From IMG/VR virus record IMGVR_UViG_2703718814_000005, positions 8,034-72,033 of that record: a stretch of DNA of 64,000 nucleotides, one strand, 5' to 3'. A program made the position numbers. The stretch is from a virus. Its lineage: Duplodnaviria; Heunggongvirae; Uroviricota; Caudoviricetes. Numbering within the stretch: position 1 is the first letter of the stretch; each line of letters opens with the position of its first letter. Positions 27,001 to 30,000 of the stretch are shown piece after piece.

Positions 27001-30000
27001 AGCCCGGCGATAATGTCCACTTCCCGATGATGGATTTCTCGCTTAAACGCCGCTAAAGCTGCATCACAATCCCGCTCAGCGTTTGGACTGTCTGGCTTTT
27101 CCTGATACCACGCCAGCGTCGACTGATAGTTTTGTACTGCCTCACGCAATGACTGATAGTCAATCTTGCTCACTGGTTGCCTCCTTTGCTGGGCTTTCGA
27201 ATGTATCAAACTCAAACAACTTAACCACGTCATCAAACAGAACATAATCGCCATCAGAATCTTCAGTCATGTCAGCGCCACAATCCTGACCGAACGAGTC
27301 ACAACAATCCATATCAAGCTCGTATCGCTTCAGGTTTGCGATATTTGATAAATTCAGCGCCAGTACAGCCAGGTCATAAACCTCTTCGGCAGTGACATCG
27401 CTGTTCAGTCCCATTTCATGGCGATATATGATTTTTTCTACACGTTGTTTTGTGATCGTCATTTTTCTCTTCACTCCGATATACAAGGATTACTACGCCC
27501 CTCTGCTGATTGCGCGAGCTGGATCCCCTGGTTCCATGCTGTCAATCCCGAAGGCTTCGAAAAATGCATCCATTGCCTTCTGGCGTTGCTCCTGCTTACG
27601 GCGTTTATTCCATTTTTTCATGAACAACAGTGACAGCCATCGTCCGCTGCAGAACATGATGTAGAAATAACCAAGGAGCGCCAGGCCGGTGTTCAGGGCT
27701 GTATCGATCGTTATCGTGGTGTTGATGTTCACTTCACACCTCTCTGTTTGTTGATAAGTTCAATATCCTGCTGGCAACTGGCGCAAGCTCGGCATCCACG
27801 AACAGCCAGGCGTCGCCGCTCATCTATCGGATCGCCACACTCGCAACAATGAGTAGCAGATGGGGCATTACTATCGGATTTGTATTTTTGCAGGGAGAGA
27901 TTGCGCTGCAATTCTTCGATTTCAGCGGCATTGTCGATGATATCTGCCATTTTCCTTTCCTTCAGGCATGAAAAAAGGAGCCGAAGCTCCTTTAGTTTCA
28001 GAATTCAAATTGTCTTGCCCGCAGGCTTTTCAGCATTGGCATGGCCCGCTGGATAACGGAACTTGACATGTCGAGACGTGTTACCTCCCTTAGTAGCGCG
28101 TCTCTGTTCTTCGTCACCATGTAGATGGTCTCAAACGCAATGTCATACAGCTTGTTCGTGTATGAGGAGTTCAGCTCTTTCATAATGGGATACAGGTGTT
28201 TGCTGATGTCCTGGGCTTTTTCCATCCAGAGCTGCATGTAGCAAAGGAGGATGATTTCCTCGGCTGTGAATTGCGGCTGTGGTTCTGCTTGTACTGGCTG
28301 AATGTTGCGAAGTTTCTTTTCGCACTCGATGAAGTAGCGGCGTATCTGGCGGCCTTTTTCGTTACGTTCAACCATCGCAAGCTCTTTGGCTGTGTCGAGG
28401 GTGAGGTGATAGTCTTTGCTACGGCGATCGCCTCCTCGACCTTTGATTTCCCGATTTGGGGAAACCAAAATATAGTCCTGATTTTCAACGAAACCATATT
28501 CAGCAATGCGTTCTGTAATCCAAGACGCAAAGCGTTTACCTACCCCAAGAAAAGTATGTAAATCACGGGCATTAACGAGAAGAGTGGTTTCGTTGGCGAT
28601 AGTGCCGTTGAATACGGGGATGAGTTGACAGGTCATGATGACCTCCTTGTAAGTTTAGTTAGCTCAACCAGTTAGTAGCTGGTTGGTCGGGTGTCAACTG
28701 AGCCTTACAAGAAGCTCTGGGCATATTCCCCTTACGGGTATTGTATTACGCCTCTCCACCCGACCTTTGTACGGATGTGACTATGCCGCATTACGGGCAT
28801 AAAAAAGCCGCAAAGCTATCGGGTGCGGATGACCGCTTGTAAGTTCAGTGCGGTCAGTATGCGATAGCTCAGGCGGATTTGTCAAATCGTGCAGTAACAT
28901 CCTTTTCTTCCTTGCCATTTCTCAATGATGACAAAGGGTGGATTCGGATTGGTATTGGGACAAAAGTGAGACACACAAAGCTTTGCATCGGCTTACAAAG
29001 CTTTGCATGTTTTTCAATGTTGGGACGTGTGAGCGCAGAAATGACGGGCTATCTAATTGATTTTAAACGATACGTAACCAACTTTAAAATCTTTGCACGC
29101 CAGTTCGCAGGTTTTACAGCCAGTACAGCGGCTGGAATCGATAAAAAATCCATATTGTGTGGTCATGGGCTACTCCTTAAACCTTTTCGATCTGGACAAG
29201 ATTGCTGTGCGACGGGTTTCCCTTTGCCAGCGGTGAAGGGCGGTGAGAGGTCAGAATATTGATACTGCCGCCGTGATCGACCCGGTCACCAAACATATCC
29301 GCTTTAAGCCACGCACCTTGCCCGATGGCGGTAACGCCAGGCAGAATACGCGGAGTCACTTTTGCGGCAATCAGCATTTCTCCATTATTGTTAAATACCC
29401 GCACGGTATCGCCATGACGGATACCGCGTGCCTGAGCATCAATGGGGTTGATCCACACCTCTTGTGGGCAGGCCTGCTGTAACACATCAATATTGCCGTA
29501 GCTGGAGTGGGTACGCGCTTTGTAGTGGAAGCCCGTTAACTGCAGTGGATAGGTTTTCCGCAGGGGATCGTCCCAGCCATCAAAACCTGGGGTATACGCA
29601 GGAAGGGGATGAATAATTTCATCTTTTTTCAATTCCCAGGTATCTGCAATCTTCGCCAGTCGTTCAGAATAAATTTCGATTTTCCCCGAAGGTGTTTTCA
29701 ACGGGTTTGCCTGTGGATCTTCACGGAATGCGCGGAAAGCGACGTAGTGTTCTTCCGGGCATTTTTTCTTAAAGATCCCGGTCGTTTTCATCTCCTCGTA
29801 GTCGGGCATCTCAGGGTTACGTTCCTTCGTTTTCGCATGGAGATATTTGATCCATTCATGCTGACTGCGACCTTCAGTAAAGGTTTGATAAACGTCTGGT
29901 CCTAAGCGTTTGGCGACTTCACTCAGCATCCAGTAGATGGGTTTGCGTTCAAATTTTGCTGAGGTTGCGGGTTGGGCGAGGATCACATAGCCCATATTCC

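Follow-up and report, generated by a model that had tools for sequence, protein, structure and literature searches.

A 7-bp core at the junction between a Stx-type prophage and ynfG

Introduction

In the 64,000-nt stretch of DNA analysed here (hereafter the window), ynfG breaks off shortly after its start codon and phage DNA takes over, which raises the question of how this junction arose and which of its bases belong to the host, to the phage, or to both. A preliminary description of the sequence had proposed that a prophage integrated inside ynfG, and had noted that short-tailed lambdoid phages, Stx-type ones among them, have been reported at this gene. The literature bears this out. The Stx1a phage phiPOC-J13 sits in the S. 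flexneri locus S1742 and, when lysogenising E. coli MG1655, inserts into the homologue ynfG, an integration that the authors described as site-specific (PMC4193171). The Stx phage of S. sonnei 75/02 uses the same integration site (PMC5447701), and the Stx1a prophage of E. coli RM10410, a strain that is also among our genome matches, is given as ynfG-(62.5 kb)-ynfG (PMC10562709). Both the ynfG integration site and the phage group are already known, and the finding reported here, correct as it is, is an ordinary one.

Results

The truncated ynfG gene

On the minus strand, an open reading frame at 29053..29166 encodes MTTQYGFFIDSSRCTGCKTCELACKDFK, which corresponds to YnfG residues 1-28, followed by VGYVSFKIN and a stop codon. 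The first 28 residues are identical to K-12 YnfG, which continues with ...KDFKDLGPEV where the window diverges, so that reading frame and K-12 comparison agree on a truncation at codon 28 by the prophage end, as had been proposed. To this we can add a megablast search with window positions 28600-29600 against 5,426 complete E. coli genomes. Nearly all genomes aligned only from 29082 onward, into ynfG and ynfF, and homology to intact ynfG loci stops at this base (query base 483), within 1 nt of the end at about 29081 that had been read from the sequence. The whole query, and with it the attR junction, was aligned in 82 of the 5,426 genomes. No IS element was found at the junction. The host side of the junction contains the following features:

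29082..29166, minus strand: host ynfG 5' fragment, codons 1-28 plus 1 nt (85 nt), from sequence comparison and Pfam Fer4
29053..29166, minus strand: hybrid 37-aa open reading frame, YnfG residues 1-28 plus 9 phage-encoded residues and a stop codon
29177..31603, minus strand: intact ynfF, which precedes the truncated ynfG and then the phage DNA
31661..34087, minus strand: intact ynfE, upstream of ynfF

To the right of ynfF-ynfE, the minus strand continues with ynfD, ynfC, speG, ynfB, ynfA, rspA and rspB. The truncated YnfG peptide keeps the first CxxCxxCxxxC motif and matches Pfam 4Fe-4S models (Fer4_2, E 6e-7), but a YnfG/DmsB-type Fe-S subunit has about 205 aa and four Cys groups, and here only residues 1-28 with Cys group I are left. 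The equivalent fragment in related genomes is annotated by RefSeq as a pseudogene, '4Fe-4S binding protein, incomplete'.

The prophage

The phage part of the window comprises:

1..29081, plus strand: right-hand 29 kb of a short-tailed Stx-type (Sepvirinae-like) prophage, from identity to Stx phages and Pfam
16171..24591, plus strand: open reading frame of a 2806-aa virion protein (ORF call), typical of short-tailed Stx phages
27998..28636, minus strand: gene for an antirepressor of the AntA/AntB type (Pfam AntA, E 2.5e-28, and P22_AR_C); counted from attR inward, it is the first phage gene

Positions 1-24600 are 98-99% identical, over 98-100% of their length, to the Stx phages P13771, Ss-VASD and P13374. 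Phage phiON-2011 is also among the short-tailed Stx phages whose late regions show this 98-99% identity. The hallmarks of a Sepvirinae late region are all present, namely an N4-gp56-type capsid protein, genes for tail fibres and a virion protein of roughly 2800 aa. The capsid and tail genes are followed by a leftward module with DUF551, Ea22, TraR/DksA and AntA (24600-29081; Pfam), and this module best matches the extreme right ends of the records of Shigella phage POCJ13 and of 75/02 Stx. POCJ13 covers 79% and 75/02 Stx 63% of positions 24600-29081, at approximately 91% identity, and since this coverage is partial, the att-proximal module is mosaic. Next to att, the final 161-169 nt of their arm match the window at 100% identity; the phage/host boundary of the window is exactly where the POCJ13 record finishes, and the 75/02 record includes the 7-bp core described below. 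The window holds just 29 kb of prophage, with late genes and the ea22/ant module and without an integrase gene, and therefore represents the attR-side arm that the preliminary description took it to be.

The opposite prophage end in relatives

The left end of this prophage, with integrase gene, attL and stx, falls outside the window. The best genome match to the prophage part reaches just 97.8% identity, with 95% of the query covered; the genome from which the window comes is therefore absent from the 5,426-genome collection, and we turned to its relatives. Strain JNEC-KY179, with those values for the prophage part and a backbone that is 100% identical to window positions 38000-50000, carries a prophage of about 63 kb with stx1a. 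The order in this genome is clcB-dmsD-ynfH-'ynfG-integrase-exo/bet/gam-…-cI/cro-like-…-Q-stx1A-stx1B-lysis-terminase-portal-capsid-tail, followed by the region equivalent to the window. In this relative, the rest of ynfG, which was to be expected past the other prophage end, is thus located about 63 kb away, where it adjoins the tyrosine integrase gene int; this supports integration of the prophage inside ynfG. The position of this gene is also where the integrase of the present prophage had been placed, beyond the left edge of the window.

The integrase of the relatives has 387 aa, belongs to the tyrosine recombinases (PF00589, E 1.5e-45), and is encoded by a gene that ends 52 nt from the ynfG 3' fragment. 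It aligns to the catalytic motifs LRHT and RYAH of HP1 integrase, and among solved structures those closest to it in sequence are HP1 Int and Xer recombinases instead of lambda Int; a search for an arm-binding domain gave no Pfam match at E <= 0.001. A 501-nt probe across the attL of JNEC-KY179 found the attL junction in 89 genomes (coverage at least 80%). At attL, the other 177 residues of YnfG have neither a credible start codon nor the first Cys group, and the fragment in JNEC-KY179 is annotated 'missing N-terminus'. We considered whether an in-frame restart could rescue this fragment and rejected it, as only GTG codons are available, these lie in phage DNA without a recognisable Shine-Dalgarno sequence, and Cys group I would still be missing.

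The attachment sites

Alignment to the uninterrupted ynfG locus of K-12, which had been suggested as a check, defined the att core. We compared attB of K-12, attL of JNEC-KY179, attR of the window and attP of an IMG/VR contig. The only block identical in all four is the 7-bp sequence TTTAAAG, with mismatches immediately on both sides. Its attR copy, and the aligned sites, are as follows:

29082..29088, minus strand: attR copy of the 7-bp common core (overlap region) TTTAAAG, from the four-site comparison
attB (K-12), ynfG sense strand: GGCGTGCAAAGAT TTTAAAG ATCTTGGCCCGG
attR (window), ynfG sense strand: GGCGTGCAAAGAT TTTAAAG TTGGTTACGTATCG
attL (JNEC-KY179), ynfG sense strand: GGTGAGCAACAAC TTTAAAG ATCTTGGCCCGG
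attP: …GAGCAACAAC TTTAAAG TTGGTTACG…
attB in the same alignment as attP: …GCAAAGAT TTTAAAG ATCTTGGCC…

Lambda-type tyrosine integrases likewise use an overlap region of 7 bp. In attB, the core is flanked on either side by the inverted half-sites AAGAT/ATCTT, and inverted half-sites around the core are the usual layout of core-type sites.

The phage collection contained no record of an uncut attP, as all relatives were deposited cut at att. However, an exact-pattern search of IMG/VR with the attP 31-mer GAGCAACAACTTTAAAGTTGGTTACGTATCG, deduced from the two junctions, gave one exact contiguous match, on contig IMGVR_UViG_2579778634_000010 (L006). On one strand, this contig carries bet, exo, a DUF4222 gene, an HTH excisionase-like ORF, the gene for the 387-aa integrase, the core, the arm and an antA-type gene, and its arm past the core is nearly identical to the window from 29081 to 28800. 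Because the 31-mer spans the core with int upstream and antA downstream, the phage-side flanks are contiguous on L006. Site-specific recombination requires such contiguity in unintegrated DNA, and here it is present. The deduced attP also holds a 14-bp palindrome, CAACTTTAAAGTTG, as read from the sequences.

The inverted repeat

The preliminary description had drawn attention to a 9-bp inverted repeat at the junction. The repeat is real and exact, with GATTTTAAA at 29059-29067 and TTTAAAATC at 29083-29091 (both on the plus strand) separated by 15 nt, but it is not the att core, which it merely overlaps.

29059..29091: 9-bp perfect inverted repeat, a host/phage hybrid with a loop of 15 nt, in attR only

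The hybrid nature of the repeat follows from its composition. Six of its nine bases are the self-complementary hexamer TTTAAA, which occurs in the core and again 15 nt into the phage arm (29062-29067); the remaining three, at the outer edge of each arm, come from the host (GAT) in one case and from the phage (ATC) in the other. The bases at 29089-29091 (GAT on the ynfG sense strand) are found only in the host, and since attP reads AAC instead, the 9-bp repeat is confined to attR and attP repeats only the hexamer. Relative to the 7-bp overlap the repeat lies off-centre, with one arm overlapping the core and the other 15 nt away. The 64-kb window contains 16 perfect inverted repeats with arms of 9 bp or more and a 3-30 nt loop, versus 5.5 +/- 2.0 in block shuffles, and the chance of finding one in a given 60-nt interval is approximately 1.5%. 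A promoter scan returned promoter-like matches at 29088..29060 and 29062..29090, which are the same two repeat arms read as hexamers.

Candidate binding sites and RNA elements in the phage arm

We also inspected the phage arm between the core and the antirepressor gene, where the following elements were found:

28955..29026, minus strand: candidate arm-type Int or accessory-protein sites, from repeated motifs with further copies on the int-side arm of attP
28885..28856, minus strand: promoter-like site just upstream of the structured element (promoter scan)
28801..28870, minus strand: structured element, followed by a run of six U (RNA fold)
28677..28765, minus strand: full-length hit to the Rfam model sRNA-Xcc1 (RF02221), scoring 71 bits where the gathering score is 53

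The heptamer GTCCCAA occurs twice in the arm, at 29020-29026 and 28955-28961. The motif ATGCAAAGCTTTGT is also present twice, at 28995-29008 and 28975-28988, 20 nt apart, and each copy, part of the ATCGAAAGCTTTGT-type repeats, contains the palindrome CAAAGCTTTG. Two further GTCCCA and one GATGCAAAG are found in the same orientation on the int-side arm of attP. Counted over both strands of the 64-kb window, GTCCCA[AC] occurs four times and [GC]ATGCAAAG three times, and in each case two of the copies fall within this 70-nt stretch. Arm-type Int sites or sites of accessory proteins would be expected to recur in this way, and GTCCCAA and ATGCAAAGCTTTGT appear to be better candidates for them than the inverted repeat. 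Inspection by eye revealed no convincing IHF consensus in the arm. The available copies of the att-proximal arm are essentially all identical, so conservation is uninformative on which of its bases matter.

The structured element at 28801-28870 (minus strand) folds with -26.9 kcal/mol (z = -4.1), and none of 200 shuffles was as stable. It is conserved in POCJ13 and in contig L006. Its place in the circular phage is past attP, downstream of int; in the prophage it separates the ynfEF unit from antA and could shield the antirepressor gene from host read-through. A consensus scan for canonical intrinsic terminators from ynfF to antA gave only the tandem-palindrome hairpin at 29010..28971; the hairpin and U-run of the structured element may act as a terminator, although the U-run is 6 nt off the main stem. 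The sRNA-Xcc1 match lies 40 nt upstream of the antA start codon; in APSE phages, this RNA family has been described ahead of a gene with an ORF6N domain (bioRxiv 10.1101/2020.03.17.996009).

Discussion

How the junction arose

A shared and duplicated core, a contiguous attP and an adjacent recombinase gene (the last in the relatives), by which an attR made by a tyrosine integrase is recognised, are all found here. We consider it very probable that 29082-29088 is the attR core of a Stx-type lambdoid prophage (Sepvirinae, POCJ13/75-02-like at this end) that was inserted in ynfG by a tyrosine integrase. In the proposed course of events, the short-tailed Stx-type phage would have been inserted at ynfG codons 27-29 by conservative site-specific recombination, catalysed by the phage tyrosine integrase. 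As attP and attB share just the TTTAAAG overlap, strand exchange within it would duplicate the core at both prophage ends. The 85-nt 5' fragment of ynfG would then remain with ynfEF at attR, and the 3' fragment, together with ynfH and dmsD, would move to attL beside int, some 63 kb off. The gene would be inactivated and not reconstituted, its first Cys cluster motif being parted from the remaining protein, and precise excision would be expected to restore it. The 9-bp repeat would have come about incidentally when host GAT-TTTAAA was joined to a phage arm with a second TTTAAA-ATC. Of this account, the present data show the junction sequences, the contiguous attP in unintegrated DNA, the family of the integrase and the population frequency, and earlier work shows that the relative phiPOC-J13 integrates site-specifically in MG1655 ynfG; the exact cleavage positions, the arm-type sites and the operon effects are inferred.

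The default alternative for a truncated gene is a non-site-specific event, such as a deletion, an IS-mediated event or illegitimate recombination, or else an assembly artefact. Nothing specific speaks for it here, and the identical junction in 82 independent complete genomes, a complementary junction in 89 genomes with the same 7-bp core, the existence of a contiguous attP, the absence of an IS at the junction and the published lysogenisation experiment in which a close relative entered MG1655 at ynfG (PMC4193171) make it extremely improbable. More weight, though still unlikely, has the possibility that attR is genuine and the prophage is rearranged or a remnant, its attL and integrase gene lost or distant, so that excision does not take place and ynfG is permanently split. 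Such a rearrangement is seen in strain 2014C-3307, in which attR (1,626,423-1,627,423, minus strand) and attL (974,421-974,921, plus strand) are inverted and about 650 kb apart. Some relatives carry frameshifted virion or terminase genes, and the left prophage end lies outside the window. However, in S19-651, JNEC-KY179, JNEC-KY208 and STEC2018-607, with a backbone 100% identical over 38000-50000, attL and int are found at the normal distance, and the 29 kb of prophage in the window contains long intact ORFs, including the 2806-aa gene.

Another possibility is that the 9-bp repeat is functional, e.g., as paired core-type Int sites or as a cruciform guiding excision from attR. It is exact and statistically uncommon, one of its arms reaches into the core, and that on the phage side shares bases with AAATCAATTAGA, of which an 83%-similar copy, AATTGAATTAGA, lies across the core in attP. 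Nevertheless, we regard a function as decidedly improbable, since two-thirds of the repeat is a self-complementary hexamer in an AT-rich region, and its arms are asymmetric about the overlap, in contrast to the truly symmetric AAGAT/ATCTT half-sites of attB. The repeat was also considered as the core itself, or as core-type sites, and was rejected because of this asymmetry and its absence from attP and attB, which leaves it no part in integration.

Consequences of the insertion

With the prophage integrated site-specifically, the inactivation of ynfG plausibly deprives the cell of the Fe-S subunit YnfG and, with it, of the YnfEFGH selenate/tellurate reductase. The prophage parts ynfH and dmsD from the ynfE promoter, and a polar effect is possible. 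Both genes share the strand of int and follow it directly; no terminator was seen in between, the sib-like element going to attR. At this opposite end, int reads toward 'ynfG-ynfH-dmsD. At attR, the phage module of promoter-like site, structured element, sRNA-Xcc1-family RNA and antA is on the same strand as, and directly downstream of, the anaerobically expressed ynfEF. Conceivably, if the putative terminator at 28801-28870 were leaky or regulated, anaerobic host transcription of ynfEF could feed expression of the antirepressor, a scenario to which we give very little credence. If true, induction of the Stx prophage would be tuned in the gut, and expression of dmsD, and so maturation of DMSO reductase, would depend on phage transcription.

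Roughly 1.5% of complete E. coli genomes have the ynfG attR junction, and occupancy of ynfG is a practical marker of one Stx1a-converting phage lineage that has moved between E. coli and Shigella. Base-level detail that we did not find in the papers on ynfG integration consists of the TTTAAAG core, the symmetric attB half-sites, the candidate arm sites and the unintegrated attP, and these additions leave the accepted picture unchanged.

Comparison with known phages

The closest parallels are phiPOC-J13 (Stx1a; Sepvirinae, Diegovirus) and 75/02 Stx, which like the prophage in the window target S1742/ynfG, and with which it shares the integrase-end arm and the layout of ant, TraR-like and Ea22 genes near att. 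Unlike in these phages, the structural region of the window is closer to that of the Stx2-type phages P13771, Ss-VASD and P13374.

The arrangement at att resembles that of lambda, in which a tyrosine integrase is also encoded directly beside attP. The 7-bp overlap of lambda is TTTATAC. Both phages have an overlap of this length, inverted half-sites in attB and repeated motifs in both arms, and the structured element with its U-run, beyond attP and opposite int, occupies the same position as lambda sib/tI. The two differ in that lambda integrates between genes (gal-bio), whereas the ynfG phage enters a coding sequence and inactivates the gene. In addition, the identity block is 7 bp here compared to the 15-bp core of lambda, and the lambda-type N-terminal arm-binding domain was not found by Pfam.

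Among other Stx phages, 933W at wrbA and the prophages at yehV/btsS-mlrA, ompW and dusA follow the same principle of integrase-specific insertion in or beside a conserved gene, and Stx-phage insertion sites serve as a typing marker (PMC10562709). What sets the ynfG prophage apart from other gene-splitting Stx prophages is that it enters the third of the five genes of an operon, close to the 5' end of that gene, and because of this position ynfH and dmsD are cut off from the operon promoter.

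ynfG prophage ends in related strains

The first phage gene inside attR, the att-proximal antirepressor gene antA (27998-28636), is full-length in the window and encodes a 212-aa protein with AntA and P22_AR_C domains. Its counterpart in the E. coli strains 2014C-3307 and JNEC-KY179 is a 270-bp pseudogene (19768-20037 and 4879-5148 in L001 and L007, our handles for the sequences of these relatives), and a second ant gene comes after it. The attR-adjacent module is mosaic, yet its last ~160 nt are invariant. In 2014C-3307 (NZ_CP027368.1), the ynfG prophage junctions are located at 974,421-974,921 (attL) and 1,626,423-1,627,423 (attR). 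These two ends are in opposite orientation and separated by ~650 kb, which implies that a large part of the chromosome has been inverted and that one breakpoint falls within the ynfG prophage.

A Qin-like prophage and an apparent element in its terminase gene

The window also contains a second, Qin-like prophage (39448-60145), which starts immediately past rspB, at the position of ydfJ, and carries the following features, including its own integrase and excisionase:

39448-40743, minus strand, integrase
excisionase gene
44203-44254, DicF RNA
dicB
49459-49633, hokD/sok
52928-53351 and 55829-56213, two cspA-type thermoregulator leaders
54277-55612, lysis genes

The large terminase gene of this prophage is truncated (59150-60145), and is annotated in a relative as 'missing C-terminus'. 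It is followed by:

60307-61545, tyrosine integrase
HTH gene
61822-62403, BRO-N gene

In the same relative, an Icd-like gene follows as well. The region 59150-63783 has the appearance of an integrative element, P4-like or satellite-type, that inserted into the terminase gene.

Structured elements upstream of antA

A full-length match to the Rfam family sRNA-Xcc1 (RF02221), scoring 71 bits against a gathering score of 53, was found at 28677-28765 (minus strand), 40 nt before the start codon of the AntA/AntB antirepressor gene. The same family is reported to precede an ORF6N-domain gene in APSE phages (bioRxiv 10.1101/2020.03.17.996009), which suggests that sRNA-Xcc1 is a cis-acting leader or small RNA tied to genes of the Ant/ORF6N/KilA type, and not an sRNA confined to Xanthomonas. 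The minus strand at 28801-28885 carries a promoter-like site (TTGACA-18-CATACT, 10 of 12 matches); downstream of it come a structured element with a stable fold (z = -4.1) and then a U6 run. In the circular phage this combination is situated downstream of int and past attP, a position similar to that of sib/tI in lambda; a small RNA of ~50 nt is a further possible reading.
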